From contig JAHFKW010000001.1 in assembly GCA_023245145.1 (NCBI GenBank), positions 75,823-135,416 of the forward strand: a DNA stretch of 59,594 nt. Direction: 5' to 3'. This document shows positions 3,925 through 21,175 of this stretch, in pieces (the stretch's first letter is position 1; each line of letters begins with the position of its first letter). This DNA comes from Candidatus Staskawiczbacteria bacterium. Lineage in GTDB: Bacteria > Patescibacteriota > Minisyncoccia > Minisyncoccales > Staskawiczbacteraceae. Both the position numbers and the translations under genes were made by a program. The notes under the pieces were generated by a model. The model had not been told where the DNA came from, ran no database searches, and was given only the letters and a program-made list of their open reading frames with translations.

Positions 3925-4363
3925 GAAGGCATTGTATGACTATGAAATCCTGGAAAAGTACGAAGCCGGGCTGGTTTTGATTGGGCAAGAAGTAAAGTCT
4001 ATAAGGGGCGGGAAAATGCAGTTGGCAGGAAGTTATGTAATAATTGGCGCCGGGCACAATGCTGCGCCCGGCAGCTCACAGCTTGTGGGCGCAAAAATCC
4101 CGGCCTATCAGCCCTTAAACGCTCCGCAGGGCTATAATCCCGAAAAAATACGTAAGCTCTTGTTAAGCAAAAAAGAGCTGAATTATTTGGCCGGAAAAGT
4201 AAATGAACGCGGATTTTCCTTAATCCCCTTGAAAGTTTATGATAATAATGGTAGGATTAAACTCGAATTTGGACTGGCCAAAGGAAAGAAGGCTTTCAAC
4301 AAAAAAGAGAAGATAAAAAAGCGAGATGTTGAGCGTGATATCCAAAGGCAACTAAGTTCTTAA
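3899..4363 (+). CDS. smpB: SsrA-binding protein
   Basis: ENKKALYDYEILEKYEAGLVLIGQEVKSIR, RKLLL, LAKGKK; directly upstream of tmRNA. Confidence 0.97.
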   Translation: MTQIYSENKKALYDYEILEKYEAGLVLIGQEVKSIRGGKMQLAGSYVIIGAGHNAAPGSSQLVGAKIPAYQPLNAPQGYNPEKIRKLLLSKKELNYLAGKVNERGFSLIPLKVYDNNGRIKLEFGLAKGKKAFNKKEKIKKRDVERDIQRQLSS

Positions 4364-11412: not shown

Positions 11413-11784
11413 TCACTTTGCAAACTCCGCGAGCGCAGTTTGTTCGTCTTTTTGGATGTCGAACAGTCTGTTGAGCTTGGTGATTTCGAACACCTCGTAG
11501 ATATCATCGTTGATGGAGCACATGACCAATTTACCTCCCCCCTTGTCTTGGACTTTTTTGTTTAGAACAACCAACTTGTTAAGGAAAGCTGCGTTCATGA
11601 ACTCAACGCTACCAAAGTTAAGCAGGATCTTTTTGCGATCGTACTGATCGACGAGACTGAACAGGTCTTCGCCGATCTCTGTGATGGTCTCCTTATCCAG
11701 GATTTTTTTGTTGAGGAAGCTGACGATGGTGATTTCGCCGTTATCCTCAACTTTGAAACGACTTTTACGGGCCATTGTGAACAT
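11413..11784 (-). CDS. STAS-domain anti-sigma-factor antagonist-like protein (solo cassette 2)
   Basis: KILLNFGSVEFMNAAFLNKLVVL...GGKLVMCSINDDIYEVFEITKLNRLF; GGAGG 5 nt before ATG 11784 (alternative ATG 11775). Confidence 0.88.
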   Translation of the reverse strand: MFTMARKSRFKVEDNGEITIVSFLNKKILDKETITEIGEDLFSLVDQYDRKKILLNFGSVEFMNAAFLNKLVVLNKKVQDKGGGKLVMCSINDDIYEVFEITKLNRLFDIQKDEQTALAEFAK

Positions 11785-11845
11785 AACTTCCTCCAAGTTT
11801 CTGGTGAGTGGGTTTGCAACACAAAGAACAACTATCACAACCACA

Positions 11846-13042
11846 CTACTCTTTTTTTTCTAACTTTGCAATCTCCTCCCTCACAATCTCCCTATCATCC
11901 CACGGAATTTTTTTGCCATCGGCCAAGCACATTAACGGTTCGGCGCCTTTGCCCGTAATAATTACCGCATCAGTTGGCGTGGCCAGTTTGAGGGCTTTTT
12001 TGATAGCTTCTTTTCTGTCCAATATTAAATGAAATTCATCTTTTTTACCCTCCACGCCTTCGGCCACTTGCTCTATAATTTCCCACGGATCTTCGTCATA
12101 AGGGTCTTCATTGGTAATAATAATTTCCCGACAATTTTGACTGGCAAGGCGACCCAGCACTGACCGTTTCCATTTATCCCGCCCACCACCACAAGCACCC
12201 AAAACACACACCAAACTTTTATTATTTGAAAAACTTTTCACTGCGGTATACGAAGCTTCAAGCTGGTCGGGAGTAAATGCATAATCAACCACGACTATCG
12301 GATCTTTGGAAATCACCTCCAGTCGGCCAGGCATACCCTTTACCTCTTCTAAAACTTTTACACACACGTCTTTCGGCACGCCATAGTGAGTGGCTACAGC
12401 CATGGCCGCCGCCGCGTTCATCTGGTTAAATTCTCCCAAAAGTTGTAAGTTAATGTGTTCTATGTTGTTACCAAACGTAATAACTTTTTTGGCGGGAATA
12501 TCCAAAAAATATTGGGCGTTTTTATCTTCAGTATTCACCACGTGGGCGTTTTTAGTGACCTCAAATAGTTTTAGTTTTTCGTTGCGATAATTCTCAAATC
12601 CTCCATGGGAATCCAGGTGCTCGGGAGTTAAATTTAAAAACACTGCCATGTCAAAGTTAATAAACCGATGACGGTGCTGTTTAATGCCCTCTGAAGCAAT
12701 TTCCAAAACTGCATAATTACAACCCGCGTCCACCGCTTGCCTTAAAAACTTTTGAATGATAAACCGACCGGGCGTAGTCATTTTTAATTTATTTTGCCAC
12801 TCATCTTTGCCAATTTTAAAACGAATAGAAGAAATAGAGGCCACTTTGGCGCCATAAGCTTCCAAAATCCGAGTAATAAATTCGACGGTCGTCGACTTGC
12901 CACTCGTTCCCGTTACCCCAATGACGATTAATTTTCTTGAAGGAAAACCAAAAATCACCGACCCAATCAAAGGCATAGAATAGTGGTAAGCATCCAGTAA
13001 AACATTTGGCGTTATTTTTTTCAGTAATTTCTTAACATTCAT
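11846..13042 (-). CDS. murE: Mur ligase, MurE-like
   Basis: GVTGTSGKST, EIASEG, NLTPEHLDSHG, GRLE, VDYA, GGGRDKWKR, NEDPYDEDP, GKGAE. Confidence 0.85.
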   Translation of the reverse strand: MNVKKLLKKITPNVLLDAYHYSMPLIGSVIFGFPSRKLIVIGVTGTSGKSTTVEFITRILEAYGAKVASISSIRFKIGKDEWQNKLKMTTPGRFIIQKFLRQAVDAGCNYAVLEIASEGIKQHRHRFINFDMAVFLNLTPEHLDSHGGFENYRNEKLKLFEVTKNAHVVNTEDKNAQYFLDIPAKKVITFGNNIEHINLQLLGEFNQMNAAAAMAVATHYGVPKDVCVKVLEEVKGMPGRLEVISKDPIVVVDYAFTPDQLEASYTAVKSFSNNKSLVCVLGACGGGRDKWKRSVLGRLASQNCREIIITNEDPYDEDPWEIIEQVAEGVEGKKDEFHLILDRKEAIKKALKLATPTDAVIITGKGAEPLMCLADGKKIPWDDREIVREEIAKLEKKE

Positions 13043-13069
13043 ATTTTCAAATTACCATAATTTTCCAAC

Positions 13070-13102
13070 AAAAAAAAGCTGATTCCCGGTCAGAATCAGC
13101 TT
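13070..13102 (-). terminator. Intrinsic terminator of cassette 3
   Basis: aagctgattc / gaatcagctt stem plus U tract. Confidence 0.8.
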
Positions 13103-13124
13103 GAGTGCCACATAACCAACCGCT

Positions 13125-13568
13125 TTACGGTTTAGCGCCACAGTAATCAATGTACTGGCGAAAAGCATTTTCCACTGCACTAACTCCGGCACTATATAAA
13201 TCGAGCCCTACCCCCTCTGATATACGAGGTTCAATACAGTGCAAAACCTTAACCAATACACAAACGTATTGTTGCACATTTTGTTCTTGAAAAGACGAGA
13301 TAGTGGCGTCTCGAATACATGGAAACGCTGGAAGCAGGCCTTTTTTAACGGCCCCGAACAAGCAATGTACAAAACTGAGAGACGGCAAGGTGAGACCTGG
13401 AACCGAAATCTTAATTCTTTTTTTCTTTTTTCGGCCGGCAATTTTCAACTCTACCGTCATTGAAAACCGAGACCGGCAAGTAATCCTGCTACCACGCACA
13501 TGACTAGTGGCGGTAGTAACAGAAAAATTCACCTCTTTAATCTCAAAACAAAACAGTTGTGATTTCAT
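13125..13568 (-). CDS. Hypothetical protein (solo cassette 3)
   Basis: 147-aa ORF; AAGGAA 6 nt upstream, AGCTCTTT at 13593-13600, TGcTATAAT at 13616-13624, own terminator. Confidence 0.6.
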   Translation of the reverse strand: MKSQLFCFEIKEVNFSVTTATSHVRGSRITCRSRFSMTVELKIAGRKKKKRIKISVPGLTLPSLSFVHCLFGAVKKGLLPAFPCIRDATISSFQEQNVQQYVCVLVKVLHCIEPRISEGVGLDLYSAGVSAVENAFRQYIDYCGAKP

Positions 13569-13675
13569 CGCCTATTCCTTTCGCAATAGAGAAAAGAGCT
13601 GTCGCAAATAACATTATTATAGCATTATGCAAAAGTAAAGGAGAGACATCTCTTGATTCAATACCCATAAATCTA

Positions 13676-13697
13676 CAAGCTTGGGAAAAGCCAGACA
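13676..13697 (+). repeat. Left 22-bp inverted repeat flanking the PaaX/Cas2-like gene
   Basis: caagcttgggaaaagccagaca; reverse complement of 14317-14338 with one mismatch. Confidence 0.9.
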
Positions 13698-13717
13698 AGG
13701 CCTCCACATCTTCTCTA

Positions 13718-14248
13718 CTACATTTTCTCTACTAAAAATATCTTGACGTACCTGTCTAAAGCATAAAACTGCAGTAATTTTTCCGTTTTTTCAGAAATAT
13801 CATAAGGACAAACCCAAACACTTTGCTGGAAAATTTTATAACCCAAATTACGCAACGTGCTTCTAAGTAATTCCCTGGCTTTTGGATGTTTTTGGGGAAC
13901 GTCAAAAATAACCATAATCCATTTACCGTCCTTTCTTTTGCTCTTTCCCTCCATTGTAAAGCTCGCTTTCAAAACTTTCGACATGCCACTTTTAGTAATC
14001 ATGACCGTTTGATTGCCCTGCAGGCTAGCAACTTTTATAATGTTATTGCTTTTCAAATAATATACCAATTTGTCGAATTTTCTCTTACCCATATCGTGAC
14101 GATACTTGGCAAAAATAGGATTTACGCCACCGGTCATAATACTTGCCTTACGATATTTATTACTAGATAAAAAATTAACCACATCGTCAGCTTTTTCAAT
14201 GTATTTATATAAATCCCACATAAATTGGTCAGTAATAGGCAGTCTCAT
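13718..14248 (-). CDS. PaaX-like protein (probable wHTH plus Cas2-like ferredoxin fold)
   Basis: LVYYLKSNNIIK..MITKSG followed by DGKWIMVIFDVPQK..ARELLRSTLRNLGYKIFQQSVWVCPY. Confidence 0.82.
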   Translation of the reverse strand: MRLPITDQFMWDLYKYIEKADDVVNFLSSNKYRKASIMTGGVNPIFAKYRHDMGKRKFDKLVYYLKSNNIIKVASLQGNQTVMITKSGMSKVLKASFTMEGKSKRKDGKWIMVIFDVPQKHPKARELLRSTLRNLGYKIFQQSVWVCPYDISEKTEKLLQFYALDRYVKIFLVEKM

Positions 14249-14316
14249 GTTTGGCAATTATGTATTATTCCTTATGTATTACTTTCTTTGTATTATATAA
14301 TACATCATATCATAAC

Positions 14317-14338
14317 TGTCTGGGTTTTCCCAAGCTTG
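14317..14338 (-). repeat. Right 22-bp inverted repeat flanking the PaaX/Cas2-like gene
   Basis: tgtctgggttttcccaagcttg on the plus strand. Confidence 0.9.
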
Positions 14339-14397
14339 GTTTTTTACAGACAAGTTTATTTCTTCTGTTTGCGCGATAAAATGTACCATAATTTTTC

Positions 14398-14429
14398 AAA
14401 AAAAAGCTGACGTGGGCGATACGTCAGCT
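14398..14429 (-). terminator. Intrinsic terminator of cassette 4
   Basis: agctgacgt / acgtcagct stem plus U tract. Confidence 0.8.
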
Positions 14430-14775
14430 ATAAAGGTTCGTGAAGAGAGCGTGTACCGGTTGACTCTACAATCACCAACGCAGATTCTTTCATCATCAGG
14501 CGAGGGTGCCGGTAGGGATGACAATGCTTATTGGTCCATTCCAGTTGCATGTCCCTCAACAAGAGAATGTTCCCGTTGGGCATACGCAACGCCACGTTCT
14601 GAAACAAATTGTGCTTTTTGTCGCACAGCAACGAGAATTGGAATCGGTAGTAACAACCACCATAGTACAACTCTACGATCTCGTCTTCATACGCCGGACG
14701 CGAACAGCAATACACCCCCTCGTAGGTGTATTTACGCTGATACTCATTCCTTTGATGATCTAAAGGGCCAACCAT
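14428..14775 (-). CDS. Hypothetical protein (solo cassette 4)
   Basis: 115-aa ORF; GAAAGGAG 7 nt upstream of the ATG; terminator at the stop codon. Confidence 0.6.
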   Translation of the reverse strand: MVGPLDHQRNEYQRKYTYEGVYCCSRPAYEDEIVELYYGGCYYRFQFSLLCDKKHNLFQNVALRMPNGNILLLRDMQLEWTNKHCHPYRHPRLMMKESALVIVESTGTRSLHEPL

Positions 14776-14822
14776 AGCGAATCTCCTTTCGTGTAGGTAA
14801 GAAAAACTTCACTCACTATAAA

Positions 14823-15386
14823 CTAACGACCCAAATTCTTCAATGCCAACTTAATGCGCTCTTCCGTACTTTTGATTTTTGGGTCAACAGTTTTGAGTGC
14901 TTCTTTGGCTTGCTGATGCGAAAATCCCAGCTGAACCAACGCGTCTTCGGCATCGCTCCCACCCTTCAACTTTGCGCCATCTAACATTTTAATTTTCCCC
15001 GTTAATTCCAAAATAATCGTCATGGCCTTTTTGGCGCCAATGCCGGGAATTTCGCCAAAGATTTTTACATCCCCTGCCAAAATCTTGTCTTTTATTTTTT
15101 CTAAAGGCCCTAAGGCCGAAATTTCCAGCGCCGCCTTGGGCCCCACGCCGTGAATGTCTAGCAAAGTTTCAAAAAATTCCAGCTCGTCATAGCTTTTAAA
15201 TCCATACAAATCCGATGCGTCTTCTTTGACATTATGAAAACAGAAGAGCTTTAAATTTTCACTTATTTCTGGTAAGGTTAAGGCCGTTTTACGGGAAACA
15301 AAAACCTTGTAACCAATATTACTGTTTTCCAAAATAACAAACTTGTCTTTCTTCAATAGAATGTTACCGTTAATATAGTTAATCAT
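14823..15386 (-). CDS. ruvA: Holliday junction branch migration protein RuvA
   Basis: MINYING, IGYKV, LYGF, GVGPKAAL, IPGIGAKKA, ALVQLGF. Confidence 0.95.
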   Translation of the reverse strand: MINYINGNILLKKDKFVILENSNIGYKVFVSRKTALTLPEISENLKLFCFHNVKEDASDLYGFKSYDELEFFETLLDIHGVGPKAALEISALGPLEKIKDKILAGDVKIFGEIPGIGAKKAMTIILELTGKIKMLDGAKLKGGSDAEDALVQLGFSHQQAKEALKTVDPKIKSTEERIKLALKNLGR

Positions 15387-17872: not shown

Positions 17873-20800
17873 TTATTTTTTACTGTTTTTGAACTCTTCC
17901 CTCTGTTTCTCGATAGCCCCTTCCAACTGCTCTCTTGAGGCTAAATCTTTATACAATCCCAACATACCATAAGTCTGCAACTGAGCAAGTTTGGGCATAT
18001 TATTTAGTATGTTTATGACTTCCTCTGTGGAATCTTCAAAATTAAATTGTTTCTTAAAAACATTCCCCCAGGGAGCTATTTCTGGCCTAGTTACAGGCTC
18101 AACACCTTCGTTTTTTAGTTTTTTGATTTTTGCGTCTCTATTCCTCTTTTCGATCAGTGATTCTCCACCAACTCCAGCCAAGAACAGCTGAGCTCCTAAT
18201 CTATCAATTTCTGCTTCTAGCTTTTTCTTTTCCGACTCGTCGGTTGTGCTTGCGAGCATAGCCTCTTTCATTTCTATCTCTCCCCTTAGTAACTCACGCT
18301 CCTTTCTTTCTAATTTTTTAACTTCGCTATTCTTGATAGCTCTTTTTGAGCCCTTATCTGGATTGAAGCCGAGACCACTAGGCATCTTTGCTAGTTCTTT
18401 CCTTGCTCTACCTAAATCTTCTCTTACCACTTCTAGTGGTGTTTTTACTTTGGACTTCTTTTTTTCATTCACCTCCTTTTTAATCCCTTTGGCCTCCAAA
18501 AATCCCTCAACCAAAGTTGGCCATTCATCAGCAGAATTACACTCGTTGCTTAAAAGCATTCTGGTTTTGTTAATAGCACCTTTTTCATCCCAGCCTTTTT
18601 TCTGGAAAAATTCTATTAAGTTATACATAGCGATTACACTCTTTTCCACTTTTACCCGGTATTCATTCACCAAGATCTCTTTGGCAATTTTAGAATGAAC
18701 ATCTGCTGCTGCCGAAGCCAGCGCACCTCTTACAAAGTTGTATAAACTTTCTGGATCAAAGAATAGTTTTACTTTCACTCTCAAAGATTCTAAGCTATTA
18801 GAAGCTGCCATCGCGATAAATTCATCAGCGAATCTTATTAGAGCTTCTTCCTTTTTGGCAGTAAAATATTTCTTTGCACCCTCTTCATTCTCATTCTGGT
18901 TCTCGGCATATTCATTAAGTAACTCTTGGGCCTTTAATTTTTTAGATCGACTCCTATCACCAAATTGCAAATGAGAATTTTCGTGCTTTGCTGTTAGTTT
19001 GCCACTCTGATCTTTCTTCCCCTTTCTGACTTCTTGGTTTTTATTCACCATCATCCATGAAAATCCACCAGTAAATCCTTTGCCTCCCAGAACTTTTTTA
19101 CCTACTTTTTTGGTAATTTTATTTGCCAGGTCGGTATCATCAACTTCTACTGCCAGCCCCCATGGCCCAACGCTTATTTTAACTTTTTTAGCTTCGTCTT
19201 CGGTAAAATCATTTCGTTCACTTATAGTATTAAGCAGCTCCACATTATTTTCTCGTGGTTTCTCAAAAACTACCATAGCTTTTTCTTTCTCTATTTTATA
19301 TCTTCCTATATGTTTCAAAAGAATGCTCTTTTGATCTTCATCAAAAGCATAAGTCTTATCAAACTGTTTTATTACCTGTTCTAATTTATTAATAATATCA
19401 TTGAGATTGCTAGTTGCATAATGCTCTATCATTTCATTGACCATGCCACGGCAATCGGCCAAAGCTTCTTGGCGGATGGCTTTCTTTTCTGGTACCAGAG
19501 CCCCTTCAAGTTGCTCGGGAGAGTTTTTTTCTATTATCTCTTTAAACTTTTCGTTCCAAGAAACTCTTACTTCTTTTGCGGGCTCAGCTTCTGGTTTTTT
19601 TGTGGCAGGAACCGTTTCCACTGTCCTTTTTACATGCCGTTTTCCTGTTGGGCCGGTAAACTTTTTTGAGGCTTCATCGATCTTTTCAGCCCATCGAGGC
19701 ATTTCTCTTTCGTCATGTTCATATCGTGCATTTAATTCTTTTATGGCATGTGGCAAGGCCAATCCCACGCTTAATACACTCGTGAGAACAGGAGCTCGTC
19801 GAGCACACCACTTAAGCGCGCCGGAAACCGCTTTTAGTCCAGTCCATTTCATTGCAAAATCAGTGGTTTTCTTCCACCATGATGGACTAACCTTCTCTTC
19901 AAGTCGGTCAATTTGGCCCAATAAACGGTCTACACTTGTTTGGTCTTCCTCTGCCTGGGCTTTTTTCACAGATACGTTAAGCTTCTTTATTCTATCTTCG
20001 TAGTCTTCTGGGCTGTTCAAATAATCTTCCTTGGCCCAGCGCACACTACGTTCAATTACTTCTATTTTGTAATCTAAAGCCTCTATTTGAGCCTCATAAC
20101 TTTTAATCAGCTTTTTAGTAGCCTTACCCGACCCCCTTTCTTCTGCTGATGCCAACAATCTTTCATATCGCTCTCTATCTGCTAGTAAATTTTGATATTG
20201 CCTAACATCATCTGGCAAATAGTTTTCTACATCTGCTTCTTCTTGTGTTCTTGCAAATGTTTCCTCTAAAGATCTTTTCGCAACTTTCGATCCACTAGTC
20301 AGCGCATCCTCGGGCTTTTCCGCTAACTTGCTTTTTAGCTCATCTATTTCTTTTTGTTCTTTCTCTAGGTCTTTTTCCATCCGCTCGAAATCAAACGTCA
20401 TTGGAATTTCTGCCACTTTACCTGGCCCAGCTCCTACAGCCGGAGCTGCGACAACAACCTCAGGTTTACTTGCCAACTTTTTCATGTCCATAATCGGCGG
20501 GTTTTCAACCACTGTCACCTGTGTTATAGAATTAGGATCTAGCACCAACTTGGTATCAATTTTTGCTGAATCTTCTTTAATTAAGTTCCTTTTTCTATAT
20601 TCTTCTAAAAGTAAATTATGTAACTTGGTATGCCACCCACTATAATCGGGGTACCTTGCCCAACTATTTTCAAATTCTTTATCAAAATCTTCTAAGCTTA
20701 TCGCAGGGTGCTTGTCTAAAGAGAAAGTTGATCCTGAATCTAGCATCATATCTATAAGATTAGACACGTCCTGTCTTACATCAGCTTCCTCTTTAACTGA

Positions 20801-21175
20801 CTCACCAGTACCTTTGTCAATAATCACCTCTCCTGTATCGGGGTCTCTTTTTTCACCTACAATTATTAATTTAGCCTCTTCAAAATCTGAGACTGCTTTT
20901 GCTAAATCAGATAAACTTTCCGCATGATAAACACTTCTCGCATCCTTGTCTTTAATAAGGTCATAGGCACTATGCACTTCTTGAAGTTTTATAGCAGCTT
21001 GGACATCCCCCGTATTTCTATCAGGAGCGTATTGTCCCTTCAAATTTCTAGCCGCTTTGTCTATCTCGTCCTGCGAAGCACGATTAGGAACTCCCAGTAT
21101 TTCGTAGGGGTTTCCAGACTGTGCTCTTTCTTGGGGTATTGGTAATTGATCGAGTTTTGGACCATTATCAGACAT
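17873..21175 (-). CDS. Large coiled-coil protein with N-terminal J-like domain and a HExxH motif
   Basis: NPYEILGV...YAPDRN...AYDLIKD (J-domain pattern, HPD replaced by APD); KHENSH with a downstream DEFIA; E/K-rich coiled coils. Confidence 0.8.
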   Translation of the reverse strand: MSDNGPKLDQLPIPQERAQSGNPYEILGVPNRASQDEIDKAARNLKGQYAPDRNTGDVQAAIKLQEVHSAYDLIKDKDARSVYHAESLSDLAKAVSDFEEAKLIIVGEKRDPDTGEVIIDKGTGESVKEEADVRQDVSNLIDMMLDSGSTFSLDKHPAISLEDFDKEFENSWARYPDYSGWHTKLHNLLLEEYRKRNLIKEDSAKIDTKLVLDPNSITQVTVVENPPIMDMKKLASKPEVVVAAPAVGAGPGKVAEIPMTFDFERMEKDLEKEQKEIDELKSKLAEKPEDALTSGSKVAKRSLEETFARTQEEADVENYLPDDVRQYQNLLADRERYERLLASAEERGSGKATKKLIKSYEAQIEALDYKIEVIERSVRWAKEDYLNSPEDYEDRIKKLNVSVKKAQAEEDQTSVDRLLGQIDRLEEKVSPSWWKKTTDFAMKWTGLKAVSGALKWCARRAPVLTSVLSVGLALPHAIKELNARYEHDEREMPRWAEKIDEASKKFTGPTGKRHVKRTVETVPATKKPEAEPAKEVRVSWNEKFKEIIEKNSPEQLEGALVPEKKAIRQEALADCRGMVNEMIEHYATSNLNDIINKLEQVIKQFDKTYAFDEDQKSILLKHIGRYKIEKEKAMVVFEKPRENNVELLNTISERNDFTEDEAKKVKISVGPWGLAVEVDDTDLANKITKKVGKKVLGGKGFTGGFSWMMVNKNQEVRKGKKDQSGKLTAKHENSHLQFGDRSRSKKLKAQELLNEYAENQNENEEGAKKYFTAKKEEALIRFADEFIAMAASNSLESLRVKVKLFFDPESLYNFVRGALASAAADVHSKIAKEILVNEYRVKVEKSVIAMYNLIEFFQKKGWDEKGAINKTRMLLSNECNSADEWPTLVEGFLEAKGIKKEVNEKKKSKVKTPLEVVREDLGRARKELAKMPSGLGFNPDKGSKRAIKNSEVKKLERKERELLRGEIEMKEAMLASTTDESEKKKLEAEIDRLGAQLFLAGVGGESLIEKRNRDAKIKKLKNEGVEPVTRPEIAPWGNVFKKQFNFEDSTEEVINILNNMPKLAQLQTYGMLGLYKDLASREQLEGAIEKQREEFKNSKK

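Follow-up and report, generated by a model that had tools for sequence, protein, structure and literature searches.

What role would a small gene play that stands, bracketed by an inverted repeat of 22 bp, between a gene which we take to be ruvA and a Mur ligase gene in the genome of an ultra-small groundwater bacterium of Candidatus Staskawiczbacteria? A first-pass annotation of the window (the whole stretch of 59,594 nucleotides analysed here) had offered three readings, namely, (a) a minimal mobile element whose only protein has a Cas2-like fold, (b) an invertible segment, and (c) paired operators for autoregulation by DNA looping. From the present analysis, the cassette, whose gene is termed mini-PaaX in the following, emerges as a likely portable regulator and not as a CRISPR gene or a flipping switch, since genes of its family are found at differing positions in relatives and stray palindromes of the same kind occur elsewhere.

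Gene and Repeats in the Window

The two arms of the repeat, 619 nt apart, are complementary at 21 of 22 positions and enclose exactly one gene on the minus strand, as had been annotated (Table 1). This is the sole 22-mer inverted repeat of the window with at most one mismatch and arms within 1 kb; no comparable repeat occurs in 20 shuffled windows, and the single other one in the genome lies within low-complexity AT repeats. While the arms had been placed correctly, each of them is only part of a longer dyad, so that the unit measures about 693 bp and not 663 bp. Both 38-bp sites of the window share an AAGCTT core, and an arm corresponds to that core plus the inner half of a site; the outer half of the downstream site is without an arm. 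Self-pairing amounts to 7/19 in the downstream and to 11/19 in the upstream 38-mer, and the two are identical at 27/38 positions when compared in inverted and at 19/38 in direct orientation. The ORF tool sets the start of the gene at the TTG at 14257, which would yield 179 aa; the ATG is preferred by homology.

The two flanking solo cassettes reported earlier are each present as an ORF with a terminator-like hairpin; in the downstream one, an extended -10-like motif was read by eye at 13616-13624. An Rfam search of positions 13000-14900 returned two chance-level matches, none of them near the gathering score. Directly downstream of the Mur ligase gene, a STAS-domain gene (E 1.3e-9) is located at 11413-11844. 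Further along the window, 17873-21175 encodes an 1100-aa protein with an N-terminal DnaJ domain, followed by a long unannotated charged stretch.

Table 1. Features of the mini-PaaX locus, in positions of the window.
Feature	Position	Strand	Description
Hypervariable slot	13043..14822		From the Mur ligase gene (11846-13042) to the presumed ruvA (14823-15386); empty or with other cassettes in relatives
Downstream solo cassette	13076..13624	-	147-aa ORF 13125-13568 without Pfam match; terminator-like hairpin 13076-13102
Downstream dyad site	13661..13698		38 bp, axis 13679/13680; inner half canonical, outer half degenerate
Left arm of 22-bp repeat	13676..13697	+	Core and inner half of the downstream site
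mini-PaaX gene	13718..14248	-	176 aa, ATG start by homology; winged helix (about 1-101) and Cas2-like PaaX_M domain (about 107-175)
Predicted sigma-70-type promoter	14304..14333	-	TTGGGA-18-TATGAT with TG; -35 hexamer inside the upstream site
Upstream dyad site	14316..14353		38 bp, axis 14334/14335, TGTCTG-N7-CCAAGCTTGG-N7-CAGACA; likely operator over the gene's own -35
Right arm of 22-bp repeat	14317..14338	-	Core and inner half of the upstream site
Upstream solo cassette	14405..14775	-	115-aa ORF 14428-14775 without Pfam match over cut-off; terminator-like hairpin 14405-14429

The Encoded Protein

Both the VIFDV and the QQSVW motif that had been ascribed to the protein are found in it. The sequence matches the Pfam family PaaX_M (PF20803; E 2e-19, 69.9 bits, cut-off 24) and, marginally, Cas2 (PF09827; 25 versus a cut-off of 23.8); it stays just under the cut-off of TIGR01573 (Cas2; 24.3 versus 24.5) and reaches 20.6 bits versus a cut-off of 264.55 in TIGR02277 (PaaX). 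The Pfam family of the PaaX N-terminus gave no match at E 0.1. The ligand domain PaaX_C (PF08223) has no match in the genome, and the protein ends at residue 176. The absence of cas1 and of a CRISPR array, noted earlier for the locus, extends to this genome (99% complete, 14 contigs), with no match to Cas1 (PF01867) and no CRISPR-array-like repeat seeds.

A structure model built from 54 sequences has a pLDDT of 78, with residues 21-41 unsure (an earlier model had a pLDDT of 60). Its best structural alignment is with E. coli PaaX (8a39; Z 10.8, 147 residues aligned, rmsd 6.1) and spans both domains, that is, model residues 4-175 and PaaX residues 21-173; 8a39 is also the top Foldseek match (E 2.4e-3). 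The C-terminal domain (residues 104-176) aligns to Cas2 structures (Z 9.1, rmsd 1.7-1.9, 66-67 residues), while model residues 1-104 align to winged-helix proteins (1tbx, Z 8.2; 2co5, Z 8.1). A PDB sequence search with the single protein as query had no match at E 1, profile searches of the PDB gave weak Cas2 and F-93 matches only, and the homodimer prediction scored 0.25 versus a mark of 0.42. Asp116, which occupies the position of the acidic residue of Cas2 and VapD, is invariant in all 54 aligned proteins. As modelled, mini-PaaX combines an N-terminal winged helix with a Cas2-like domain and most resembles a PaaX that lacks the ligand domain.

PaaX, the phenylacetyl-CoA-responsive repressor (E. 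coli W, PDB 8A39; Jannaschia, 3L09; PF20803; TIGR02277), shares with the modelled protein the order of a winged helix and a Cas2-like domain. In a review (PMC9493321), PaaX is described as repressing its own promoter and as having the operator TGATTC(N27)GAATCA, with half-sites widely spaced over about 39 bp, a geometry which that of the mini-PaaX site matches. With 305 aa versus about 176 aa, PaaX is the larger protein; PaaX_C is absent from this genome. In contrast to PaaX, mini-PaaX has no paa genes beside it, its neighbours being ruvA, the Mur ligase gene, and orphan cassettes; it has several paralogues per genome, with a private site on both sides of each gene; and the central bases of its site are specified.

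With Cas2 and VapD, which have a ferredoxin-like fold, the C-terminal domain has in common the acidic residue after strand 1 and the QxS motif. It differs from them by its fusion to a winged helix in a genome without Cas1 or array and by its apparent reading of specific bases in the middle of a duplex site. Insertion sequences, casposons with terminal inverted repeats, and integron cassettes resemble the locus in that one gene is bracketed by related repeats and is variable in position among relatives. The mini-PaaX repeats, in contrast, are self-symmetric and of no fixed relative orientation, and neither target duplication nor a recognisable transposase or integrase nor identical genomic copies were found with them. 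A terminal-inverted-repeat insertion sequence was considered and rejected because the arms are halves of larger dyads, with no duplication outside and no near-identical copies. By the features tested, mini-PaaX works like PaaX, yet it is neither a member of PaaX nor a CRISPR Cas2 nor an insertion sequence.

Paired Sites across the Family

The genome contains four PaaX_M matches, that is, the window gene and three paralogues, which are 47-55% identical to the window protein; all four possess their own paired dyad, and the dyads differ between paralogues. The protein is matched in 16 of 23 other genomes of the genus, with 2-8 matches each, and is without a match in the remaining seven, one of which is complete; in the phylum, PaaX_M is present in 47 of 201 genomes. 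The best relatives of the window protein are 62-64% identical, and the loci most similar to the window locus are assigned to Patescibacteria, Staskawiczbacteria, or Saccharibacteria.

Gene-specific flanking inverted repeats, for which related PaaX-like genes were to be examined according to the first-pass annotation, are indeed found with these genes. A paired-dyad score, which rates a shared, self-symmetric 38-mer in the upstream and downstream flanks, is higher in 47 of 60 related loci than in the top-scoring one of 85 control genes from the genome of the window, this top control being itself a paralogue; three short-flank loci and one partial match had been dropped from the set, and two duplicates are inside the 60 (45 loci without them). 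Paired dyads are also present in 29 of 34 loci of a fresh metagenome set (48 of 53 loci entered scoring, from which 5 short loci and 9 duplicates were removed) and in 14 of 29 loci of a phylum-wide fresh set, four rows of which are wrong ORFs or longer proteins.

The pair of the window scores 82 and falls within the control range (95th percentile 91); it is therefore an unusually worn, that is, degenerate, example of the family layout, and the evidence that it is real lies in the 21/22 repeat and in the further genomic copies. Read by eye, the arms of window-type sites are displaced outwards by about one base in comparison with most of the family. A stands at position 17 in 159 of 180 family half-sites. 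Across family loci, the centre of the upstream site is most often located 27-30 bp before the start codon. In the window, the upstream site likely covers the gene's own promoter; the sigma-70-type promoter prediction is weak alone and does not exceed chance (6 found versus 4.4 by chance).

A generic degenerate site pattern, run over 24 genomes, was discarded as too loose, with counts like those of a reversed control. No exact match to the window-type 22-mer was found in metagenome contigs. A literature search for PaaX/Cas2-type genes of Patescibacteria/CPR with paired palindromes, the coverage of which excluded most subscription papers, returned no description.

Covariation of Protein and Site

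Mutual information between 53 proteins and their half-sites links the three central base pairs to residues 142, 119, and 117 of the Cas2-like domain; for arm positions 15 and 18, covariation is strongest with K60 and D59, two residues of the winged-helix part, in the long helix that precedes the wing. With K at residue 142, the base at +1 beside the axis is T in 16/16 cases, with Q it is C in 28/29, and with H or Y it is G in 6/8. E at residue 119 is accompanied by a CG core in 25/27 cases and any other residue in 0/25. The code recurs in loci outside the discovery set, with 7/7, 14/16, and 5/6 for K, Q, and H/Y at residue 142 and with 10/12 and 0/17 for E and non-E at residue 119; phylum-wide, K142 occurs with T in 12/14 sites. 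The window protein, which has Q119 and Q142, agrees with its AAGCTT core. Tree-aware tests of the code are weak, with 4, 6, and 3 supported independent pairs and median p values of 0.125, 0.03, and 0.25; none of them runs the wrong way on average.

Since two residues of the Cas2-like domain predict central bases, also in the fresh set, the protein likely binds its 38-bp site. Widely spaced operator binding and self-repression would be supported indirectly, by the covariation and by the position of the site.

Relocation among Slots

Genes of the family occupy about 20 slots; the names of the slot genes other than the Mur ligase are presumed from their sequences. The interval between ruvA and the Mur ligase gene is spanned by 19 of 23 ruvA loci from 21 relatives. 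Empty sites in relatives, which had been proposed as a check, are realised in so far as the gene is present in none of these 19 loci and as ruvA and the Mur ligase gene abut in the loci of three relatives. The interval appears to be a general cassette-exchange slot of the genus; it harbours an unrelated family gene just downstream of ruvA at another locus (L256) and a lone family site in genome G020. Throughout loci L065-L087, most relatives hold differing promoter-ORF-terminator cassettes in it, and three hold nothing.

The position of the cassette is not fixed, and unrelated family genes share slots. Monophyly is rejected for the seven genes of one slot (p-AU 0.0007) and for the four genes of another (p-AU 0.015), and 13-15 slot changes versus a minimum of 7 are obtained on the tree of either protein half, so that domain swapping alone is no explanation. 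Contigs of four DNA runs from one study, which drop rare forms, contain no excision or inversion joint on the window. At the secY slot, no inserted gene is seen in contigs of four runs, which cannot show absence.

Lone Sites Elsewhere in the Genome

Further copies of the 22-mer, which were to be searched for in the genome, do exist: a copy with one mismatch lies at C14:63073, and of the full window-type site, four strong copies and a weak one are found elsewhere in the genome. The site of the second paralogue has four lone copies, that of the third has one, and that of the fourth has none; three places hold two different site families side by side. Among 25 genomes, the window-type pattern is perfect in this one only. 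The complete 661,750-bp genome of a relative (G007), closest by RuvA and without a family gene, contains only four terminator-like matches and shows no family-type site; this is a single control genome, and the generic model applied to it fails to detect the sites of the window itself. With the same generic model, flanking and lone sites are found in G009 and G020.

In the slot between secY and adk, the gene with its pair is located in three genomes (G004, G019, and G040) and a lone site in three others (G000, G014, and G017), where the matching gene lies elsewhere in the same genome. A site is present in this slot in 6/16 gene-bearing versus 0/6 gene-free relatives; the Fisher test, run on 7/16 with G000 counted in, is not significant (p 0.12). 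A 592-nt contig of run X2 on locus L094 stems from a related organism (about 83% identical in adk); its secY-adk slot contains another cassette, followed by a window-type site, at which the contig ends.

For the most part, lone sites are not conserved in position, as the efp slot has a family site in 1/22 relatives and the ruvA slot in 1/23 loci. Some lone sites stand between converging genes or opposed terminator-like hairpins, and two coding sites, G000:C13:30128 in uvrA and C10:1437 in miaA, fill linkers that are variable in comparison with G007 and G009; lying where there is no promoter, such sites are not simply promoter operators. In lone sites, mismatches amount to 16/192 in core and arm versus 45/192 in the spacer, a contrast which is inflated by how the sites were found. 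Three of 11 places with lone sites are slots that hold a gene in relatives, which is not significant (p 0.10-0.25).

Proposed Mechanism and Alternatives

The explanation which we consider probable, albeit with clear reservation, is that of a self-repressing, ligand-free dimer of the PaaX type, the second site of which insulates or loops, with passive carriage among slots and with lone copies kept together with the protein. A dimer would bind the 38-bp palindromes on either side of its own gene and repress its own promoter. The outer arms, at a distance of about 14-18 bp from the axis, would be recognised by the two winged helices, and the central six bases by the Cas2-like domains as a pair. 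The upstream site would block the -35 region, while the downstream site would act either as a second operator or as a roadblock insulating the next gene, in a genome in which no match to Rho over the cut-off was found. Movement of the cassette would be passive, by host recombination among permissive slots, and single sites elsewhere would be copies left behind or carried along, to be kept while the cognate protein is present. Plain operator function is no explanation for the lone sites between converging genes and in the uvrA linker. As for paired operators, reading (c) is in essence supported by the recurrence of the pairs across homologues, the protein-site code, and the promoter overlap; for its looping part, the helical phasing of site distances is not significant (45 loci, p ~0.06 at 10.5-10.6 bp).

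The placement of the lone sites brings up another explanation, which we regard as unlikely, namely, that the main task of the protein lies not in promoter repression but in occupying scattered sites, so as to bridge DNA or to stop converging and read-through transcription, with autoregulation merely setting the dose of the protein. Such a network would accommodate sites between converging genes, at opposed terminator-like hairpins, and inside coding linkers, as well as the kept contact positions of lone sites, the lack of a Rho match over the cut-off, and the presence of this site type in the secY-adk slot of a related organism from the same groundwater. The private occurrence of the window-type site in this one of 25 genomes, however, does not resemble a conserved architectural system; a search for the gene gave no match in 7 of 23 genomes of the genus, PaaX_M was not found in 154 of 201 genomes of the phylum, and one paralogue is without a lone site.

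Reading (a) would require that the protein binds the dyads and that its Cas2-like centre cuts or joins DNA there without Cas1 or a transposase, by which the gene would move and lone sites would be seeded; we think this quite unlikely. Little credence is also given to its specific form, in which the private 38-bp dyad would be recognised by the winged helices and the Cas2-like centre, this centre, with its invariant Asp116, would cut or join at the dyad axis, the gene would hop between intergenic slots, and the single sites would be its footprints. The invariance of Asp116 (54/54) and the covariation of the Cas2-like domain with the site centre, where the cut would fall, are in line with such an activity, as are the relocation of the genes, the lone cognate sites in tolerant places, including variable linkers and tandem arrangement with sites of other paralogues, and the secY-adk slot with gene and pair in three genomes and a lone matching site in three others. 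The family does change position, but the repeats are symmetric sites and not terminal inverted repeats, target duplications are absent outside the arms or dyads of the window unit, and the site pair has no direct-repeat bias (9 direct versus 9 inverted columns; 5 versus 10 in the fresh set). Also contrary to self-mobilisation, no excision or inversion joint is present in the contigs of the four runs, in which rare forms are dropped; the paralogues, only 47-55% identical and with different sites, are no recent copies; none of 65 candidate stretches from viral contigs was confirmed as a relative; and the full-length structural relative is a repressor.

Very unlikely, in our estimate, are extruded hairpins or cruciforms, in DNA or RNA, which the Cas2/VapD-like domain would recognise or cut in the manner of REP or attC-type structures. 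Perfect palindromes are frequent among the sites, and a change in one arm of a site is accompanied by a change in the other far more often than expected by chance (39/57, and 33/48 in the fresh set), which a hairpin-reading protein would yield as well. According to PMC7202029, however, template switching perfects quasi-palindromes without selection and could thus produce joint arm changes. An excess of G-T over A-C is not found on the transcribed strand (32 versus 22 downstream, 21 versus 19 upstream), the window sites pair at only 7/19 and 11/19, yet their core and arms are kept, and the bases of the would-be loop covary with protein residues.

Reading (b), a segment flipped at its inverted arms by a host recombinase, can practically be dismissed, for although the inner halves form the 21/22 inverted repeat and the genome has one tyrosine recombinase, the orientation of genes within each of nine recurrent slots is uniform (53 of 53; three reversed loci beside topA, of different gene context, were left out), which speaks against inversion, no strand-changing joint occurs at the site in contigs of the four runs, and the promoter predicted inside the unit means that flipping would not switch the gene.

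Significance and Further Observations

For the self-repressing dimer, the family would provide ready-made protein/site pairs of a large group of regulators from uncultured Patescibacteria that score close to Cas2 cut-offs, together with a readable code for the apparent choice of DNA bases by a Cas2-fold domain. The many orthogonal 176-aa binders predicted here, each with a private 38-bp site, lend themselves to direct testing and could serve as parts. New in this genome are the cassettes changing slot and the lone cognate sites in non-promoter places, which make the route of movement testable; a self-moving unit, if true, would mean that the Cas2 fold has an independent role in moving DNA site-specifically.

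A further set of palindromes of the family type, with TACTACA-like arms and two core types, is found at G000:C1:14234, C4:4164, C5:6087, C14:76642, C6:10230, and C10:1437. For these orphan palindromes, the assembly contains no cognate gene; either loss of the gene or incomplete assembly may account for this. One of them, C4:4164, is part of a different context: a diversity-generating retroelement, with a reverse-transcriptase-like gene read by eye, extends over G000:C4:3028-5235, the variable region of its target gene near C4:3654-3769 and its template near 4041-4156 being 90% alike and differing mainly at A, and the palindrome sits between the template and the reverse-transcriptase-like gene.
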